Assembly: GCA_038226705.1 (NCBI GenBank)
Contig: JBBRQH010000020.1
Coordinates: forward strand, 4,293-68,292
Length of the DNA stretch: 64,000 nt
Direction of reading: 5' to 3'
Origin: Chthoniobacterales bacterium
GTDB lineage: Bacteria > Verrucomicrobiota > Verrucomicrobiia > Chthoniobacterales > SZAS-18
This document shows positions 1 to 61,025 of the stretch, piece after piece; the first letter of the stretch is position 1, and each line of letters opens with the position of its first letter. A model generated the notes under the pieces. The model ran no database searches. It had not been told where the DNA came from and saw only the letters and a list, made by a program, of their open reading frames with translations. Made by a program: the position numbers and the translations under genes.

Positions 1-1081
1 GACAAAGCTGCCGGATGCGCGACAGGCTGACCTTTCGGCCAAAATGGCGGCAAATCATTCCAAGACTGGCCGCGCCGCAATCCATCTCATCGATTTGCTC
101 GATGTGATCGATCTTCTTGACGCGCCCGGCCCGCTTTTTGAACAGCCCTTCTTCATCGACGAAAGGATCCTCACCATCTTCGTTAGCCGGCTTCTCCCCA
201 TCGAGTGCCACCTTGTCGTGAACCTGCGATTCGGCCGGCAACATCTCGGTCGTGAAATCGAGCGGGATGCGCGCTTCTGTTTTGGCCTGATAAACGGCCA
301 GGCGCTCGCTTAACAGTTTCTCGAATTCCGGGAATCGCCCGCGCAGATCAAGAACTGCCTTGGGGTTGAGAGCCAGTAACTGGCAATCGGTGAATGCTTC
401 GACCGAAGCCGCGCGCGGCGAGCCATTCAGAATGGAGAGCTCACCGAAAAAATCACCCTCGCGATAAAAAGCCAGGTTCCTTTCCTTACCATTGACCCCG
501 GCAAAGGCGCGGGCGCGACCCTTCTCGATCACAAACATGGGCCCGGCTTCGTCGCCCTGCCGAATAATCAAATTGCCCTTGGTCACGCCGATCGGTTCCA
601 GCTTGTCGATCACGCTGCGCAACGCGATCGCAGGCAGGCGCCCGAAATTGCTGAACTGGTAAAGGAAGCTTTGCAAAGCCCGACTGCGGCCTGTCATCTC
701 GACGTAACGCTTCAAATCCGGCACCTGTTCGATCAGTTGCAGAAAGTCTTTTCGATCAATCCGCAAAACGTCCACCGCCGTGCTGCATCGGACAGTCGCG
801 CTGCGCATCCCGCCGTCGGCCAGCGCGGCTTCGCCGAAACTGTCTCCCGGTTTGAGTGCGCCCAGCGGAATTTCCTCGCCGTCCGCTTTGACTTTCAGCG
901 CGCGGGCGCGCCCATGGGTCAGAAGATAAAACGAATCGGCCGGATCATCCTGCCGAACGATCACGTCGCCAAATTCAAAATGCTCTTCCTGGAGGAGCGG
1001 CTCAAGCGCGGCAAAATGCTCTTCCGAAAGGAACTTGAAGGCGGCCGAGCGCCGCATGATTTCGAGATCGGGCGCTTTCAT
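1..1081 (-). CDS. ABC exporter, N-terminal part: two cyclic-nucleotide-binding domains followed by the start of a C39 (bacteriocin-processing) peptidase domain; the 3' end runs off the window
   Basis: Absent from the ORF track because there is no stop in the window. My reverse-strand translation from ATG 1081..1079 gives MKAPDLEIMRRSAAFKFLSEEHF.... It shows two cNMP-binding signatures (GDSFGEAALADGGMRSATV and GDFFGELSILNGSPRAASV), then DEMDCGAASLGMICRHFG, the catalytic-Cys motif of C39 peptidase domains. Confidence 0.85.
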   Translation of the reverse strand, partial: MKAPDLEIMRRSAAFKFLSEEHFAALEPLLQEEHFEFGDVIVRQDDPADSFYLLTHGRARALKVKADGEEIPLGALKPGDSFGEAALADGGMRSATVRCSTAVDVLRIDRKDFLQLIEQVPDLKRYVEMTGRSRALQSFLYQFSNFGRLPAIALRSVIDKLEPIGVTKGNLIIRQGDEAGPMFVIEKGRARAFAGVNGKERNLAFYREGDFFGELSILNGSPRAASVEAFTDCQLLALNPKAVLDLRGRFPEFEKLLSERLAVYQAKTEARIPLDFTTEMLPAESQVHDKVALDGEKPANEDGEDPFVDEEGLFKKRAGRVKKIDHIEQIDEMDCGAASLGMICRHFGRKVSLSRIRQLC

Positions 1082-2232
1082 TCCTGAACACTGCTTCCAT
1101 GCAGGCGCGGTTCGATGTGTCGGGCCGACAGTTCCGAGAAATGGCGGTAGAGGAGAATATTATCGATGCGCTCGTGCAGGCTCGGATCGTCTACTTTGGG
1201 CTCGGTTTTACTGGTGATTCGGTACAACTCAAAACCGTCGCCCCGGGTCAGCGGTTCCAGCACGTCTCCCACCGTGACGCTCAGGAATTTCTGCTGTAGA
1301 TCGTCCGGAATATCCTCCTGTAAAAACGACAGGAGTTTATACGGATACCGGCCTTCGGTCGCAACTTCCTCCATAGACATCCCATCTTCCTTCACGCAAA
1401 AGAGCGCTTCCTGTGCAGCATCGCGCGATTCCAACTCGATCACTTCAGTCTCGAAACGGGTGAGCGGCAACCGGAGGAGCGTCATCTCGCGCTGGCGCGC
1501 CTGCGGAGTCAGGAGAGAGTCGCGCCGGCGGCGATATTCCGACTCCATGCGCAGCATTTGCTCGAACCAGGGAGTGTCCCGCCCCAGTTTTTGCAGCCAG
1601 TCTGATAGCTGGTCTTTGGTCAAACCACTGTGTTCCAGGAAACAGCTGCGTTCGGCTTCGATGCTCTCGGCCTGCACTTCGTCATTAGCCGTGGCTGCGG
1701 ACGCAGCCATGCGCCAGTTCAGGTCTATCGTGATACGGTCGAGGTCACCCGATAAAATGATTTCCGCGGCGAAAAGCTGCCTCAGTTCATCTGGCGCGGA
1801 AAGATAACCGATTTCCTCGGCCGTCACTTCTTCCCCCAGGGCATTCAGGCAGGTTTGCCGCGCAAAATAGCCACCGAAATCATCCAGGGTAAGACCCCGC
1901 ATGGCCAACCACTGCTCGGTCTCCTCTGCCGTGATCAGATCATGGTCGTAGCGAAATTTCTCGGCGGCGTCGTCGATCGCATCCTCATCCAGCTCCATCT
2001 CCGCGGAGTCCGCCTGTTTTTCGGCCGCAACACGTCGCAGGAACGGCTGCCACAAGTCGTCCAACTGACCACGGAAAAGTGCCGCCTCAATCGCATCACG
2101 TGCCGTAAACTCCTGTCCCCCGCACGCGCACACGACCAGGTCATCGTGCGACACTGACTCAGTATTCGCCATTAAAAGGGCGTTTGTAGCGGGATTCGCG
2201 AAAGAAGTCGAGTCCATCGTTAACGCCATCAA
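1078..2232 (-). CDS. Putative peptide-maturation protein with a C-terminal parvulin/PpiC-like region
   Basis: 384-aa ORF. Its stop overlaps the exporter ATG (ATGA at 1078-1081). The C-terminal ~100 aa (ALFCVKEDGMSMEEVA...VGDVLEPLTRGDGFELYRITSK) look rotamase-like. From memory only, it resembles the PpiC-related maturation proteins found beside C39 ABC exporters. The start is ambiguous (2232, 2229, 2217 or 2172). Confidence 0.6.
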   Translation of the reverse strand: MMALTMDSTSFANPATNALLMANTESVSHDDLVVCACGGQEFTARDAIEAALFRGQLDDLWQPFLRRVAAEKQADSAEMELDEDAIDDAAEKFRYDHDLITAEETEQWLAMRGLTLDDFGGYFARQTCLNALGEEVTAEEIGYLSAPDELRQLFAAEIILSGDLDRITIDLNWRMAASAATANDEVQAESIEAERSCFLEHSGLTKDQLSDWLQKLGRDTPWFEQMLRMESEYRRRRDSLLTPQARQREMTLLRLPLTRFETEVIELESRDAAQEALFCVKEDGMSMEEVATEGRYPYKLLSFLQEDIPDDLQQKFLSVTVGDVLEPLTRGDGFELYRITSKTEPKVDDPSLHERIDNILLYRHFSELSARHIEPRLHGSSVQE

Positions 2233-2409
2233 ATCGTCGTTTCTCAGTAAGGGCGAGCTTCATCGAGCCGGCCCGTAAGCTTTATTCGTCCGATGGACGG
2301 CGGCCCCAGCTAGGAAAGGGATCATCCGCGGCCTTGGCTAACGGCGGAAGGCGTCCTCGAATCGTTTTTTGTTTTTCTCATTGCGCGGAAGCAGATGGAG
2401 AGGCATATA

Positions 2410-2423
2410 TGTTCATATGAACA
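2410..2423. promoter_or_regulatory. Candidate LexA (SOS) operator, TGTTCATATGAACA
   Basis: Perfect match to the published Verrucomicrobia LexA motif TGTTC-N4-GAACA. It forms a 16-bp perfect palindrome (2409-2424) in a divergent intergenic region, about 75 bp upstream of ATG 2497. Confidence 0.5.
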
Positions 2424-2496
2424 TTCACCGCATACGCGCTGCCTTCCTCAGACGCCGGGTTCGCCGGGCTAAACCCACCCAACTTGAACTCAACCT

Positions 2497-2718
2497 ATGG
2501 CCGAAGAGCCGCCGTTAGACAGACTTAAGTCGGTCTTTGATCTGATCCGCGAACGCGCCAACTACGCGCTTAAGGTCATCGCGGAGTTCGAGGAGGTGAA
2601 ATCGCTGCGCTGGCGCTGCCTCGTGTGCGGTCACGTCAAAGGCTTTACCCGCCGCGTTCCTGTGGAAGTCGCGTTTCCCTGCCCCAAGTGCCAGGGCTCA
2701 GATTTTATTAGAGACTGA
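2497..2718 (+). CDS. Small helical + C4 zinc-ribbon protein (73 aa), TraR/DksA-like architecture
   Basis: ORF with sensible composition. An N-terminal amphipathic helix is followed by CLVC-x17-CPKC. Confidence 0.65.
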   Translation: MAEEPPLDRLKSVFDLIRERANYALKVIAEFEEVKSLRWRCLVCGHVKGFTRRVPVEVAFPCPKCQGSDFIRD

Positions 2719-2771: not shown

Positions 2772-2899
2772 GCTTGGGTTCGGTCGCCTGTGCGTCGACG
2801 TCCGACAGTGACTTCAGGTTGGCCGCCTCTTTCGCCTGCAGTAACCTTGCATCAGCCATTAGATTTCGACGACAAGGGAGATAGGGACGTCGACTGCAA

Positions 2900-2934
2900 C
2901 GCCGGGAGAGAAATCTCCCGGCGTTTCTCTTTAT
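2900..2934 (+). terminator. Rho-independent terminator
   Basis: 10-bp stem CGCCGGGAGA/TCTCCCGGCG with a GAAA loop, followed by TTTCTCTTTAT. It lies downstream of the 73-aa gene. Confidence 0.6.
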
Positions 2935-3525: not shown

Positions 3526-3813
3526 ATGGATATAGACGCTCTGCACTCGACCCTCCTTTCGATCACCCTCGTTTCGGATAAACTTCGCTCCACCCGCGAG
3601 AATCTTTGCGTCATGACCGATGTCCGGTCGGATGTAGCGGAATCCCTCGCGCATGCGGAAAGCGATTTGCGCGTGGCCAAGGCAACCCTGGCGGGCGAGC
3701 TCGGATTCAATTTGTGTCCGCGCTGCTGGCCACCGGAAATCGTCACGACCGATCGAGATGGTCGAGTGAATTGTCCCGCCTGCGGCCAGATTTCTTACGA
3801 TCGAGCGGCCTGA
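3526..3813 (+). CDS. Small coiled-coil + C4 zinc-ribbon protein (95 aa)
   Basis: About 57 aa of helical hairpin, then CPRC-x15-CPAC. Same architecture as the 73-aa protein at 2497. Confidence 0.6.
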   Translation: MDIDALHSTLLSITLVSDKLRSTRENLCVMTDVRSDVAESLAHAESDLRVAKATLAGELGFNLCPRCWPPEIVTTDRDGRVNCPACGQISYDRAA

Positions 3814-3901: not shown

Positions 3902-4684
3902 TCACTTCACCAGCGTGATTTTCCAGAAGTCATCCGATAGGTTCGCGTCGAGCAGATACGCGTACGGCATCGTGAAGTAACCTTTCGTTCCCCAGGCATT
4001 TCCCCACGAATTGCGCATGCGAAACCGGCTGAGCTTGTCGTTGTAGCCCACCACCATGACAGCATGGCCGCCGAGGACATGCTCGCGCTGCGCCGGCATC
4101 GGGATAATGCCCGTCCTCGCTGACTCTTCGCTCTCGAAGCTTTCGTAAACGGTAAATCCGATGACAAAAGGATAGCCTGAGGCGAGGCAGCCTTTCATTT
4201 GCGAAAGATTGCGCCGCACCCGCTGATATTGCACGGCGGTATGCTTGAGCGCTTCCTTGTAGCAAGGCGCTGACGGTTTCTTCGCCAGATGTGCATTGGG
4301 CGGGAAAGGCGCCGGATCGTAGGGCCACATTTTCTCTGGGCAAACACCCTGCTTGCCCACGCTCTTTATTCCATCCCTGATCATGGCGCCGGCATCCTCC
4401 TTGATCGTGTTCTCCATCACGCGCTCGTTGTAGTAGATGAACAGACGCGATGGCACGAAGGCGTTGCGCATCTTCTGTTTCATCTGGTCGAACTGGATGG
4501 TCCCTCCGATCGCATTGGCCGTGCAGCTGCCGATCTCGCCTTGGTCGTAAACAGCAGGGCACTTATTCGTTAGGTCGATTTTGGCCGGTAACTTGGACAG
4601 AATCGAGGGAGCGGCCGCAAAAACGTAATCCCGATGATCGGGCAGATCGGGAATCCAACCGTAACGAGCAACTTTACGAGGCAT
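3902..4684 (-). CDS. Papain-family (C1) cysteine peptidase with no signal peptide
   Basis: Catalytic motifs QGEIGSCTANA (Cys), GGHAVMVVGY (His) and NSWGNAWG (Asn/Trp). The N-terminus MPRKVARYGWIPDLPDHRDY is not hydrophobic. Confidence 0.85.
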   Translation of the reverse strand: MPRKVARYGWIPDLPDHRDYVFAAAPSILSKLPAKIDLTNKCPAVYDQGEIGSCTANAIGGTIQFDQMKQKMRNAFVPSRLFIYYNERVMENTIKEDAGAMIRDGIKSVGKQGVCPEKMWPYDPAPFPPNAHLAKKPSAPCYKEALKHTAVQYQRVRRNLSQMKGCLASGYPFVIGFTVYESFESEESARTGIIPMPAQREHVLGGHAVMVVGYNDKLSRFRMRNSWGNAWGTKGYFTMPYAYLLDANLSDDFWKITLVK

Positions 4685-7608: not shown

Positions 7609-7681
7609 TGGAGGCAAGGGGATTCGAACCCCTGACATCCAGCTTGCAAAGCTGGCGCTCTACCAACTGAGCTATGCCCCC
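7609..7681 (-). tRNA. tRNA-Ala (anticodon UGC); CCA not encoded
   Basis: Reverse complement reads GGGGGCATAGCTCAGTTGGTAGAGCGCCAGCTTTGCAAGCTGGATGTCAGGGGTTCGAATCCCCTTGCCTCCA. The cloverleaf has a TGC anticodon loop and the G3:U70 alanine identity pair. Confidence 0.95.
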
Positions 7682-8168: not shown

Positions 8169-9714
<1,546 letters not shown>

Positions 9715-33922: not shown

Positions 33923-34243
33923 ATGAAACTCCTCCTCCCTATCGCTTGTGCCGCGTTTGCCGCCACTAGCCTCTTTGGCCAGGTCACCGAGACGACCACG
34001 ACCACCACGACCAGCAACGGTACTCTCACGGAATACACCCCCGGCACGACCTTCGTCATCAAAGAGACGACCGGCCCAATGAAGTACACCTACGGCAAGA
34101 CCGTGACCTATGTGACCAAGAGCGGCAAGGTGCTCAAAGACGACGAAGTTCGCACCCGCGTGAAGCTCGGCAGCCCAGTGAGCGTGCAATACGTCCGGAC
34201 CGGCGAAGATCGCGTGATCAGCCGGGTTGTGATCGACGATTGA
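33923..34243 (+). CDS. Small secreted Thr-rich hypothetical protein
   Basis: Signal peptide MKLLLPIACAAFAATSLFGQ, then TETTTTTTTS. Confidence 0.6.
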   Translation: MKLLLPIACAAFAATSLFGQVTETTTTTTTSNGTLTEYTPGTTFVIKETTGPMKYTYGKTVTYVTKSGKVLKDDEVRTRVKLGSPVSVQYVRTGEDRVISRVVIDD

Positions 34244-37610: not shown

Positions 37611-37688
37611 ATCTGCACCGTTACCCGTCCGCCGATTCCCGTCGAGCGTACAAAAAGGACCAGGGAGCGACGGCAGAACAGGTCAGAA

Positions 37689-37720
<32 letters not shown>

Positions 37721-37859
37721 TTCCCGCCTGCTATCCATCGTCCCTGGCGCCGGGATGATCCGCGACCCGGCGCGTGACGCAAATAATTTCACCGTCAGCG
37801 TTCTTGCGGTTTACCGCGCAATGCTTACAACTCGCGGCTCTCTTCCTGCCGCCTGCAAA

Positions 37860-48369: not shown

Positions 48370-51300
48370 ATGGCGGCGTCCTCGTTTGTTCATCTTCATC
48401 TGCACACGCATTATTCCACCCTCGATGGGGCGGTGCGCGCCGGCGACCTGATGAAAAAGGTGAAGGGCCTGGGCATGCCGGCGGTCGCGATGACCGATCA
48501 CGGAAACATGTTTGGCGCGATCGAGTTTTATCGGGCAGCGAAGAAGGCCGGCGTAAAGCCGATCATTGGCTGCGAGGTCTACATGGCGCCGGGTTCCCGA
48601 CGCGATCGCGCGGCGGGTTCGGCGCGCGAAGCCGCCTATCATTTCACCCTCCTCGCGGAGAATGCGGAAGGCTACGCCAACCTCTCCAAGCTGGTCACGG
48701 CGGGCTTCCTCGAGGGGTACTATTACAAGCCCCGCATCGACAAGGAAATCCTCGCCACGCATGCCCGTGGGCTCATCGCGCTGAGCGGATGCTTCAAAGG
48801 CGAGGTCAACTCCTTCCTCAATGCGGGCCAGCCCGAGAAGGCACTCCGCGCCCTGGGGGAACTGCGCGACATCTTCACGCCAAAGAATCTTTTCGTGGAA
48901 CTGCATGACCACGGGATGGAATCGCAGCGGAAGAACAACCCGCAACTTGTGCAGATGGCGCGCGACCTGGGCCTCGGTCTCGCCGCGGCGAATGACGTGC
49001 ACTTCCTCGAGCGTTCCCACCACGACGCGCATGATGTGCTCGTCTGCATCGGCACGCAGGCCATGGTGCACGACCAGAAGCGCATGCACTACTCGCCGGA
49101 GCTCTATTTCAAGAGCGCCGAAGAGATGCGGATACTTTTTGCAGAGCTGCCGGACGCCTGCGACAACACGCTTGAGATCGCCGAGCGTTGCAGCCTCGAG
49201 ATTGAATTCGGCCGGCCGAAGTATCCCGACTTCGAGCCGCCCGCCGACAAGACGCGCAGCGAGTACCTCCGCGAACTCTGCTGGGCAGGCCTGGCCAAAC
49301 GCTTCGGGGAACGCGCCGAGAGCGACACGACGCTCAGACAGCGGCTCGAGTACGAACTCGGGGTGCTCGAAAAATCCGGCTTCATCAGCTATTTCCTCAT
49401 CGTTTGGGATTTCATCCGGTTTGCGAAGGATCGCGGCATCCCGGTGGGCCCGGGACGCGGCTCGGCGGCCGGTTCGCTCGTCGCCTACGCCCTCGGGATC
49501 ACCGACATCGATCCCATTCGTTTCAACCTGCTCTTCGAGCGCTTTCTCAATCCGGAACGCGTCAGCCCGCCGGATATCGACGTCGATTTCTGCCAGACCC
49601 GGCGCGATGAAGTCATTCAGTACGTCCGCCAGAAATACGGGGAGAGCCGGGTGAGCCAGATTATCACCTACGGCACGTTGAGTTCGAAAGCGGTGCTGAA
49701 AGACGTGAACCGCGTGCTCGGTTTTAGCTACGCGGATGGGGACAAGCTCTCGAAGATGATCCCGCTGAAGGGACAGGTTCCCTACGATCTGCCCGAGGCG
49801 ATTCTGGTTAACGGCGAGTTGAAGAAACTCATCGAGACCGATGGCAACGCGAAGCAAGTGTGGGACTACGCACTCGTGCTGGAAGGCTTGGTGCGAGGCA
49901 CGGGCGTGCACGCGGCGGGCGTCGTGATCGGGGCGGAGGATCTTTCCAACTTCGTCCCCCTCGCCCGGGACAAGGACGAAAACGTCATCACGCAGTACGA
50001 CGGCAATACGCTGAACGACCTCGGCCTGCTCAAGATGGACTTCCTCGGGCTGAAAACCCTTACCGTCATCGAGGATGCGCTCACGCTCATTCGCGCCCGG
50101 CGCGCCCCGCAGTTTCGTTTTGAGGAGACGAACCAGGAGAACGACGGACCGACAATCGCGATGCTCAATCGCGGCGAAACCGTCGGCGTCTTCCAGTTGG
50201 AATCCGGCGGCATGGTCAGTCTTTGCCGGCAGTTCGAGATCGCCTCGATCGACGACATCATCGCGCTCATCGCGCTCTATCGGCCGGGCCCGATGGACCT
50301 GATTCCCGACTACATCGCGCGGAAGAAGGGCAAGACGAAGATCAAGTACGCGCACCCGCGGCTGGAGGAGATCTGCGGCGATACGTTCGGCATCATGATC
50401 TACCAGGAGCAGGTCATGGCGGCCGCGAATATCCTCGCCGGCTACTCGCTCGGCGGCGCCGATCTGCTGCGGCGCGCGATGGGCAAGAAGGATTTCGCGA
50501 AGATGCAGCAGGAGCGCAGCAAGTTCGTCAAAGGCTGCGCCGAGACGAATGCGATCGGCGAGACCAAGGCGAACGAGATCTTCGACTTGCTGGAGAAGTT
50601 CGCCGGTTACGGCTTCAACCGCAGCCACAGCGCCGCGTACGGCTGGGTGAGCTACCAGACGGCCTTTCTCAAGGCCAACTACCCGGTCGAGTTCATGTCG
50701 GCCACGCTCAGCAACGCCATCAATGCCAGCGATGCGACGGAGAAGATCGCCACGCTGGTGGGAGAGTGCCAGCGCATGCAGGTGCCCATCCTCCCCCCGG
50801 ATGTGAACCGCAGTCGGCTGAAGTTTCAACCCGAGGACCGCGAAGGCGAAATCGCCGCGATCCGCTTCGGGTTGGCGGCGGTCAAAAACGTCGGGGAGGC
50901 CGCCGTGACGGAAATCGTGCAGGAACGCGAGACGAACGGCGCGTTTGCCTCCCTGGATGATGTTTGCCGCCGGCTCGACTCGCGCCTGCTCAACAAGAAA
51001 GCGCTCGAGAGCCTGATTAAGGCGGGTGCCTTCGATGCCTTCGGGGAGGCGCGGGAATCCGCCGTGGCGCGGTTGGATCAGGTGATCGCCTCGGCTCAGC
51101 GCGAACAAAAAGAAAAGGCGAGCGGACAGATCTCGCTCTTCGGCGACTTTGGCAGCAACGAAGCCACCGGAGAACCCGAGGCGATGGGCACAGGCGTGCG
51201 CGAAGTGGTCTTCACCCCCTGGCCGGAAGAGGAAAAACTCGGCTACGAAAAAGAGCTGCTAGGGTTCTACGTCAGCGGGCATCCGCTCGACGCGTACCGG

Positions 51301-51927
51301 CCGCTTTTCGAGAACGAAAAGTTCCGGCCGCTCATTTCGCTCGGGGAACTCGAAGATCGCGCTTCGTTCCACGCCATCGGGATGTTTGTCTCGGTCGAGA
51401 AGAAGTTTTCCAAGAAGGACAGCCGTCCGTTTGCGGTGGTCGTGCTCGAGGATCTCACGCACAGCCTCGAGGCCATGGTCTGGAGCGAGGCGTTCGAAAA
51501 GCACTCGGCGCTGCTTGAAGCACGCAAAGTCGTGCAGGTGCGCGGCAAGGTGGACAAGCGCGGGGAAGAGCTGCGCATCACCATCGATGATATCAAACCG
51601 GTAAAGCAGCCGCCGCCCCTCACGCCGGGCGCCAAGCCCGGGCCGACGCGTCGCTCGGGTCGACTGCCCAAGGCTGAAGCGAAATCCGACTCCTTGCCCG
51701 TCCTGGCCGACGCAGCCTTGCGACTGCGCATTGCGATCGACGAGACGTTTTCCCACCGACTCACCGGCATTCGCCAGGTTCTCGCGTCCCATCCGGGCGC
51801 CCAGCACGTCGAGTTCGATCTGGTGCAACCCGATGGTGCCGTCGTCCGCTGCCGCGCTGGCTCTGCCCTTTGCGTGCAAAGCAGCGGCGAACTGGCTTCC
51901 GCGCTCGAACCCTATCTGGCCGCATGA
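48370..51927 (+). CDS. dnaE: DNA polymerase III subunit alpha
   Basis: PHP domain FVHLHLHTHYSTLDGA, the palm region GRGSAAGSLVAYALGITDIDP and FERFLNPERVSPPDIDVDF, and a C-terminal OB domain. Length 1185 aa. Confidence 0.97.
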   Translation: MAASSFVHLHLHTHYSTLDGAVRAGDLMKKVKGLGMPAVAMTDHGNMFGAIEFYRAAKKAGVKPIIGCEVYMAPGSRRDRAAGSAREAAYHFTLLAENAEGYANLSKLVTAGFLEGYYYKPRIDKEILATHARGLIALSGCFKGEVNSFLNAGQPEKALRALGELRDIFTPKNLFVELHDHGMESQRKNNPQLVQMARDLGLGLAAANDVHFLERSHHDAHDVLVCIGTQAMVHDQKRMHYSPELYFKSAEEMRILFAELPDACDNTLEIAERCSLEIEFGRPKYPDFEPPADKTRSEYLRELCWAGLAKRFGERAESDTTLRQRLEYELGVLEKSGFISYFLIVWDFIRFAKDRGIPVGPGRGSAAGSLVAYALGITDIDPIRFNLLFERFLNPERVSPPDIDVDFCQTRRDEVIQYVRQKYGESRVSQIITYGTLSSKAVLKDVNRVLGFSYADGDKLSKMIPLKGQVPYDLPEAILVNGELKKLIETDGNAKQVWDYALVLEGLVRGTGVHAAGVVIGAEDLSNFVPLARDKDENVITQYDGNTLNDLGLLKMDFLGLKTLTVIEDALTLIRARRAPQFRFEETNQENDGPTIAMLNRGETVGVFQLESGGMVSLCRQFEIASIDDIIALIALYRPGPMDLIPDYIARKKGKTKIKYAHPRLEEICGDTFGIMIYQEQVMAAANILAGYSLGGADLLRRAMGKKDFAKMQQERSKFVKGCAETNAIGETKANEIFDLLEKFAGYGFNRSHSAAYGWVSYQTAFLKANYPVEFMSATLSNAINASDATEKIATLVGECQRMQVPILPPDVNRSRLKFQPEDREGEIAAIRFGLAAVKNVGEAAVTEIVQERETNGAFASLDDVCRRLDSRLLNKKALESLIKAGAFDAFGEARESAVARLDQVIASAQREQKEKASGQISLFGDFGSNEATGEPEAMGTGVREVVFTPWPEEEKLGYEKELLGFYVSGHPLDAYRPLFENEKFRPLISLGELEDRASFHAIGMFVSVEKKFSKKDSRPFAVVVLEDLTHSLEAMVWSEAFEKHSALLEARKVVQVRGKVDKRGEELRITIDDIKPVKQPPPLTPGAKPGPTRRSGRLPKAEAKSDSLPVLADAALRLRIAIDETFSHRLTGIRQVLASHPGAQHVEFDLVQPDGAVVRCRAGSALCVQSSGELASALEPYLAA

Positions 51928-60536: not shown

Positions 60537-61025
60537 ATGCGTTGCCCAAAGTGCGGAAGCTCCGAAGACAAAGTGATTGATTCCCGGCCGGTCAATCACT
60601 ACGTGGGAATTCGTCGTCGCCGCGTCTGCTTAAAGTGCGGCTTTCGCTTTACGACTTACGAGGAAATTGAGCGGGTCGACACCCGGGTCGTGAAGCGCGA
60701 CGGAAAACACGAACCCTTCGATCGGAACAAGCTTCTGGGTGGAATGGTCGCCGCCTGCCAGAAGCGTCCGGTGAAAATCGAGGACATCGAGAAAGCCGCC
60801 GACGACATCATCCAGGAACTGGAAGCCGCGCACGACCGCGAAATCCCCTCCCGACTCCTCGGCGTCAAAGCCATGGAGAAACTGCACAAGCTCGATGCAG
60901 TCGCGTACGTCCGCTACGCTTCGGTTTACCGCCGCTTCGAGGAGGTCGGCGAATTTATCGACGAGATCAAGCAGCTCACGCAGCGGCCGAAGAAGAACAA
61001 CGCTCAGGCCGAGCTCTTTTCTTAG
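60537..61025 (+). CDS. nrdR: Transcriptional repressor NrdR
   Basis: MRCPKCGSSEDKVIDSR...RRRVCLKCGFRFTTYE zinc ribbon plus an ATP-cone. Confidence 0.95.
   Translation: MRCPKCGSSEDKVIDSRPVNHYVGIRRRRVCLKCGFRFTTYEEIERVDTRVVKRDGKHEPFDRNKLLGGMVAACQKRPVKIEDIEKAADDIIQELEAAHDREIPSRLLGVKAMEKLHKLDAVAYVRYASVYRRFEEVGEFIDEIKQLTQRPKKNNAQAELFS

Follow-up and report, generated by a model that had tools for sequence, protein, structure and literature searches.

Near the left end of the 64-kb stretch of Chthoniobacterales DNA that was analysed (referred to here as the window), a short palindrome lies between two divergently oriented sets of genes. On the minus strand, the window opens with the N-terminal portion of a bacteriocin-type ABC exporter that runs past its end, in which the first part of a C39 peptidase domain comes after two cNMP-binding domains (2-1081). 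The adjoining gene (1078-2232, minus strand) encodes a PpiC-related peptide-maturation protein, identified through a weak match to TIGR04500. On the plus strand, a gene for a 73-residue zinc-ribbon protein (2497..2718) encodes a CxxC-x17-CxxC motif after one long helix. It is preceded by a conserved, arginine-rich open reading frame of 33 codons, MNIHRIRAAFLRRRVRRAKPTQLELNLWPKSRR followed by a stop codon (2417..2518, plus strand), whose ATG (2417-2419) is located within the palindrome, and whose 3′ end overlaps the start of the zinc-ribbon gene by 22 nt. A G+C-rich, terminator-like hairpin with a T-rich tail (2898..2925, plus strand) is the probable end of the transcript; it is a match to the consensus only, one such hairpin being found where 1.2 were expected in shuffled sequences. 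A second zinc-ribbon ORF of 95 residues, MDIDALHSTLL...CPRC...CPAC (3526-3813, plus strand), is kept in all loci that share the gene arrangement of the window (type A, see below). It sits between the gene for the 73-residue protein and a papain-family (C1) peptidase gene (3902-4684), and is not associated with an operator. This ORF was considered as a possible relative of the 73-residue protein, and was rejected, as no sequence relationship was detectable.

The palindrome (2409..2424, no strand assigned) reads ATGTTCATATGAACAT and forms a perfect dyad of 16 bp. Its core, TGTTCATATGAACA (2410-2423), has the form TGTTC-N4-GAACA, and the 16-mer also satisfies the looser dyad ATGT-N8-ACAT. A perfect 16-bp palindrome without a second copy had been proposed in the preliminary description, and this was borne out, the site being the sole perfect match to TGTTC-N4-GAACA across the 64 kb. 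In dinucleotide-preserving shuffles, the mean number of perfect copies was 0.05, and at least one copy arose in 4 of 100 shuffles. A single site with one mismatch was found at 1631-1644, within a coding region; with a chance mean of 1.26, such a site is expected by chance. The spacing of the palindrome from the zinc-ribbon gene had been described correctly, with 72 nt between the palindrome end and the ATG at 2497, whereas the distance given to the divergent gene (177 nt) is obtained only with a TTG start at 2232. Orthologues of the maturation protein begin with MAN[T/A]ESVSH (MANTESV in the window), so the true start of this gene is probably at 2172, which places it 237 nt from the palindrome.

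In a scan of one genome per species, true orthologues of the zinc-ribbon protein were confined to five MAGs (L002-L006; 59-90% identity) that carry the label Chthoniobacterales or Verrucomicrobiae. The locus of a sixth genome (L001) is an NCBI MAG contig, and a metagenome scan added 17 further soil contigs with true orthologues (L053-L069). Syntenic orthologous loci, encoding zinc-ribbon proteins 82-90% identical to that of the window, were found in Chthoniobacterales/Verrucomicrobiae MAGs, which agrees with the earlier attribution of the DNA to a host from the Verrucomicrobia (phylum Verrucomicrobiota). About 45 matches from Syntrophomonas were rejected as relatives, since they are rubredoxin domains inside flavoproteins of 870 residues, and no relatives were found in viral contigs.

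All of the related loci found to be intact, including the six genome loci and those from metagenomes, have a perfect or near-perfect copy of the palindrome 5′ of their zinc-ribbon orthologue. Each of the six genome loci contains exactly one perfect TGTTC-N4-GAACA, close 5′ of the gene. When 20 non-redundant orthologous promoters were compared, from loci with zinc-ribbon proteins of 46-90% identity, the half-sites of GTTC-N4-GAAC proved to be invariant (20/20). The base counts along the 16-mer are A18, T16/C4, G20, T20, T20, C20, A17 and T15 in the left half, and A15, T18, G20, A20, A20, C20, A14/G6 and T19 in the right half. The flanking A and T of the 16-mer are retained in 18-19 of the 20 sites, and the outermost T/A of the core is replaced by C/G in some loci, mostly in both arms together. 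The central four bases are variable, and include ATAT, GTAT, AAAT, ATGT, ATGC, AAGT, AACT, ATAA and GCGT. Because the half-sites remain fixed in all 20 promoters, while the 78 nt directly upstream have drifted to just 37% identity between loci, the palindrome is functional. Fixed half-sites around a variable centre are the pattern expected of an operator that a protein would contact through two half-sites. The palindrome is, as judged from this conservation, a functional and strongly conserved operator of soil Verrucomicrobia, at which binding is predicted.

The orthologous loci were found to have two architectures. Type A comprises the window, L001-L005, L053-L056, and L067, which has a longer spacing. 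In this arrangement, the palindrome is positioned 87 nt before the zinc-ribbon ATG, and the exporter operon is divergent. In type B (L006, L057-L065 and L069), the exporter is absent, and the palindrome is 15-26 nt before the zinc-ribbon ATG, with the exception of L062 (58 nt). Upstream, type B loci have a gene on the same strand that encodes a small secreted protein containing a run of threonines, and this gene has a clear terminator behind it; downstream, an amidohydrolase gene lies on the opposite strand. Since type B loci keep the operator without the exporter, the operator travels with the zinc-ribbon gene rather than with the exporter. Neither architecture has a conserved transcription-factor gene beside the unit, and this speaks for a global regulator. 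The window also contains an ORF of 106 residues, beginning MKLLLPIACAAFAATSLFGQVTETTTTTTTSNGTLTEYTP (33923-34243, plus strand), that resembles the threonine-run secreted protein of type B, and is located 31 kb away here.

The sequence around the palindrome has features of a promoter facing the zinc-ribbon gene. A -35-like hexamer, TTGCGC (2381..2386, plus strand), with a T-rich tract before it, and a putative -10-like element, CATATA/ATATAT (2404..2410, plus strand), were recognised by inspection of the sequence; the second lies 17-18 nt from the first, and adjoins or overlaps the palindrome's left arm. In 19 of the 20 loci, a -35-like hexamer of the TTGCNN type precedes the palindrome by 18-23 nt, its variants being TTGCCA, TTGCAA, TTGCGC and TTGATC. 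TA-rich equivalents of the -10-like element at the left arm include CTATAT, CATTAT, ATATAT, TACATG and TACTGT. A scan with the strict sigma-70 consensus called no promoter at the palindrome. The position of the -35-like hexamer implies that the palindrome spans the predicted -10 element and transcription start; with normal spacing, it would cover roughly -10 to +8, with the predicted start near its centre. Overlap with the -10 element and the start is the classic position of a repressor that excludes RNA polymerase.

The small ORF that begins inside the operator had been missed in the preliminary description and is new here. It was found in the window, L001-L005 and L053-L056, and also in L067, where it has a longer N-terminus; the divergent L067 peptide retains the arginine-rich stretch and QLELNLW. 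Pairwise comparison of nine loci revealed 406 synonymous and 123 non-synonymous codon differences in the frame of the small ORF, compared with 54/488 and 11/523 (synonymous/non-synonymous) in the other two frames. Variable columns fall on codon positions 1, 2 and 3 in the proportion 13/5/23. Among type A loci, identity is 75% in the stretch from the palindrome to the zinc-ribbon gene and 79% in the zinc-ribbon gene, compared with 37% in the upstream flank. To judge from these substitution patterns, the small ORF is a protein-coding gene under clear purifying selection. With a start codon located within the palindrome, the peptide gene, and not the zinc-ribbon gene, is thus the regulated gene closest to the operator. 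The earlier proposal that the zinc-ribbon gene is the target holds in so far as the operator is linked to this gene in both architectures, but not in the sense of its being the nearest gene. No conserved Shine-Dalgarno sequence was found before the ATG of the small ORF or that of the zinc-ribbon gene. The mRNA from which the small ORF is translated is probably leaderless or nearly so, and the simplest reading would be such an mRNA with coupled translation of the zinc-ribbon gene.

Characterization of the zinc-ribbon protein relied on comparisons of sequence profiles and of a predicted structure. The residues C41, C44, C62 and C65 are invariant among the orthologues, and the conserved basic helix includes LIRERADYAL. 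An AlphaFold2 model of the 73-residue protein, of moderate confidence (mean pLDDT 70.5), consists of a helix (7-35) and a small ribbon. No Pfam (E <= 0.01) or NCBIfam family scored above threshold, there was no PHROG match, and a Foldseek search of the PDB with the model gave no match below E = 3. A profile search of PDB sequences matched a rubredoxin knuckle only (E = 0.006). None of the family, PHROG, PDB or structure searches linked either product to DNA repair. The protein had been labelled TraR/DksA-like, and members of that family (PF01258) do share with it a CxxC-x17-CxxC motif after an N-terminal helix. However, the modelled protein has a single helix rather than a coiled-coil hairpin, no match to Pfam zf-dskA_traR or structural match was obtained, and hhalign gave probabilities of 1.5% against TraR and 5.5% against DksA. 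As the profile and structure comparisons were without a match, cysteine spacing is the sole basis of the label, and it was abandoned.

The most likely protein to occupy the operator is predicted to be the LexA repressor of this Chthoniobacterales bacterium, to which we assign a probability of roughly 0.6. TGTTC-N4-GAACA is reportedly the LexA box of Verrucomicrobium spinosum, defined by mutagenesis and EMSA. The dyad of the window is identical to this box at all 10 specified positions. The two further resemble each other in the 14-bp dyad as a whole, the AT-rich spacer, the host phylum, the placement over the -10 element and transcription start, which are predicted here, and the retention across orthologous promoters. 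In contrast, the targets here, a basic peptide of 33 residues and a zinc ribbon of 73 residues, are not known SOS genes, the operator contains a start codon, and some relatives have a C/G outer pair. The LexA assignment is a reasonable one, on the evidence of the motif, and is strengthened by the conservation and promoter position of the site. Host phylum, exact match, promoter position, and the lack of a conserved neighbouring regulator gene all favour LexA. We also count for this reading the observation that decay of the zinc-ribbon gene coincides with loss of the intact palindrome. In L066 (36-266) and L068 (294-383), the zinc-ribbon copies have decayed, through an in-frame stop or truncation after about 40 codons, and in both loci the right half of the palindrome is lost and a remnant of the small ORF is retained. 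The palindrome and the two orphan small genes would likely form a new member of the SOS regulon.

The SOS genes of the host itself were sought in the available DNA. By tblastn, E. coli LexA, RecA, UmuD and DinB had no match in the window and the Chthoniobacterales loci, which together comprise 205 kb, and imuA-imuB-dnaE2 was not present within the same 205 kb. A LexA protein search, with a profile built from the B. subtilis and E. coli proteins, returned Bacillus and enterobacterial LexA only. The DnaE encoded in the window (48370-51927) looks replicative, and no motif site is present there. Among the papers searched, none contained the motif string, and none was informative on LexA or the SOS response in Chthoniobacter or Udaeobacter.

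Conservation and promoter position identify the palindrome as an operator, but not the protein that binds it. The site might instead be occupied by another dimeric regulator, which could be a helix-turn-helix protein (PadR-like, for example) or the zinc-ribbon protein acting as an autorepressor, the match to the LexA box being coincidental. PadR-family operators have the form ATGT-N8-ACAT, a dyad that is fitted by ATGTTCATATGAACAT. However, in the orthologous sites, the T of ATGT is replaced by C in four, and the A of ACAT by G in six, while the inner TC/GA bases are invariant and GTTC/GAAC is fixed in 20/20, a pattern that fits GTTC-N4-GAAC and not ATGT-N8-ACAT. Furthermore, the surroundings lack a conserved regulator gene, whether of the PadR family or of another kind. 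If the zinc-ribbon protein regulated its own gene, operator and gene would be expected to be inseparable, as they are across the two neighbourhoods, and in the moderate-confidence model the long, conserved basic helix could dimerise or contact DNA; against this, zinc ribbons of such size are not known to read 14-bp dyads. The absence of a link between the gene products and DNA repair would also be compatible with a regulator other than LexA. Yet chance identity with the LexA box of the host's own phylum at all 10 specified bases is improbable, and LexA would occupy a promoter site that matches its consensus perfectly, irrespective of other binders, provided that the LexA of the host keeps the specificity of the phylum. 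A binder other than LexA is therefore considered rather unlikely. The NrdR box, the ARG box, and dyads of the CRP/FNR type were also considered, and were rejected because their half-sites differ.

The preliminary description raised the possibility of SOS control of the peptide-export operon, and it is conceivable that the exporter promoter overlaps the site, which would then also repress the divergent maturation/C39-ABC exporter operon and confer SOS control on a bacteriocin-like export system. In the window, L001-L005 and L053-L056, the exporter operon is indeed oriented divergently from the site. However, L006, L057-L065 and L069 have the operator and the zinc-ribbon gene but no exporter, the conserved start of the exporter operon at 2172 lies 237 nt away across poorly conserved DNA, and the -35/-10 elements at the palindrome face the plus strand. 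The proposal was therefore not upheld, and such dual control appears improbable. The arrangement also differs from the SOS control of colicins and pyocins, in that the operator here is probably outside the promoter of the exporter operon and is not conserved with it.

A purely RNA-level role is very improbable. In this reading, a small hairpin at the 5′ end of the mRNA would mask the start codon of the small ORF, and thereby regulate translation or mRNA stability. In its favour, the arms are predicted to form a stem of 6 bp closed by a 4-nt loop, the outer changes occur mostly on both arms (the asymmetric TGTTC...GAACG of L060 and L062 would form U-G wobbles), and the palindrome is extended to 24-26 bp in L058 and L059. 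Against it, the predicted fold of the leader (2405-2520) does not exceed shuffled sequences in stability (z = -0.49), the -35-like hexamer 18-23 nt upstream predicts a start inside the palindrome and hence an untranscribed left arm, the four inner base pairs are invariant and never co-vary, as expected for base-specific protein contacts, and the palindrome lies at very different distances from the regulated AUG in the two architectures.

With LexA as the predicted binder, the palindrome would act as operator at a promoter of the sigma-70 type, from which two genes would be transcribed together, the peptide ORF (2417-2518) and the zinc-ribbon gene (2497-2718). Bound as a dimer to GTTC-N4-GAAC, LexA would sit over both the -10 element and the transcription start, and thereby exclude RNA polymerase. 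Upon DNA damage, RecA-stimulated self-cleavage of LexA would free the promoter. Transcription would probably initiate on the A of the ATG at 2417, or directly beside it, giving a leaderless mRNA; the small ORF would be translated first, and the overlapping zinc-ribbon gene, which is not preceded by a Shine-Dalgarno sequence, would be translated by coupling or re-initiation.

Small SOS genes that are specific to a lineage have repeatedly proved to be checkpoint effectors, such as inhibitors of cell division or gyrase. The small SOS proteins SulA, YneA, SidA/DidA, SosA, ChiZ, DivS and SbmC/GyrI resemble the two products of this locus in being short, narrow in range, without homologues elsewhere, and encoded right behind a LexA box, which at this locus is a predicted one. 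Most of the small SOS inhibitors, except SulA, are membrane-anchored, whereas neither the 33-residue peptide nor the 73-residue zinc-ribbon protein, both known from sequence alone, contains a hydrophobic segment. It is tentatively suggested that the locus might be a hitherto unrecognised SOS effector module specific to Chthoniobacterales, in which the LexA box coincides with the start of a leaderless peptide gene that gates expression of the zinc-ribbon protein, and both products act on cell division, replication or transcription after damage. If LexA binds, the SOS regulon of the very abundant and almost uncultured soil Verrucomicrobia gains two orphan small genes. If the zinc-ribbon protein itself binds the dyad, it would be a new kind of small autoregulator. 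In compact and testable form, the locus presents an operator enclosing the start codon of a small ORF, which is probably leaderless and coupled to an overlapping second gene. The 33-codon gene is missed by automated annotation despite clear selection.

Several variations on the dyad were observed in individual type B loci. In L059 (726-751), it extends to a perfect palindrome of 26 bp, GTTACATGTTCATATGAACATGTAAC, far longer than the 14-bp core, and in L058 (4292-4315) it extends to a near-palindrome of 24 bp. The same two loci contain a second perfect or near-perfect site, TGTTCGTTTGAACG in L058 (3594-3607) and TGTTCGTTTGAACA in L059 (20-33), positioned 236-241 nt upstream of the gene for the threonine-run secreted protein. 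This second site is missing at the matching position in L006, L063, L064, L065 and L069, and may be an addition to the same regulon within a sub-lineage.

Elsewhere in the window, a 16S rRNA gene (8178-9713, minus strand) is followed by a tRNA-Ala(TGC) gene (7609-7681, minus strand), and the next gene downstream is an ORF for a small secreted protein. Because no 23S or 5S rRNA was found across the 64 kb, the rRNA genes appear to be unlinked. An ORF at 60537-61025 (plus strand), beginning MRCPKCGSSEDKVIDSRP, presumably encodes NrdR, as judged by eye only; NrdR is a zinc-ribbon/ATP-cone repressor of ribonucleotide reductase genes. The bacterial small SRP RNA is encoded at 37655-37749 on the minus strand (Rfam RF00169, 55.5 bits).
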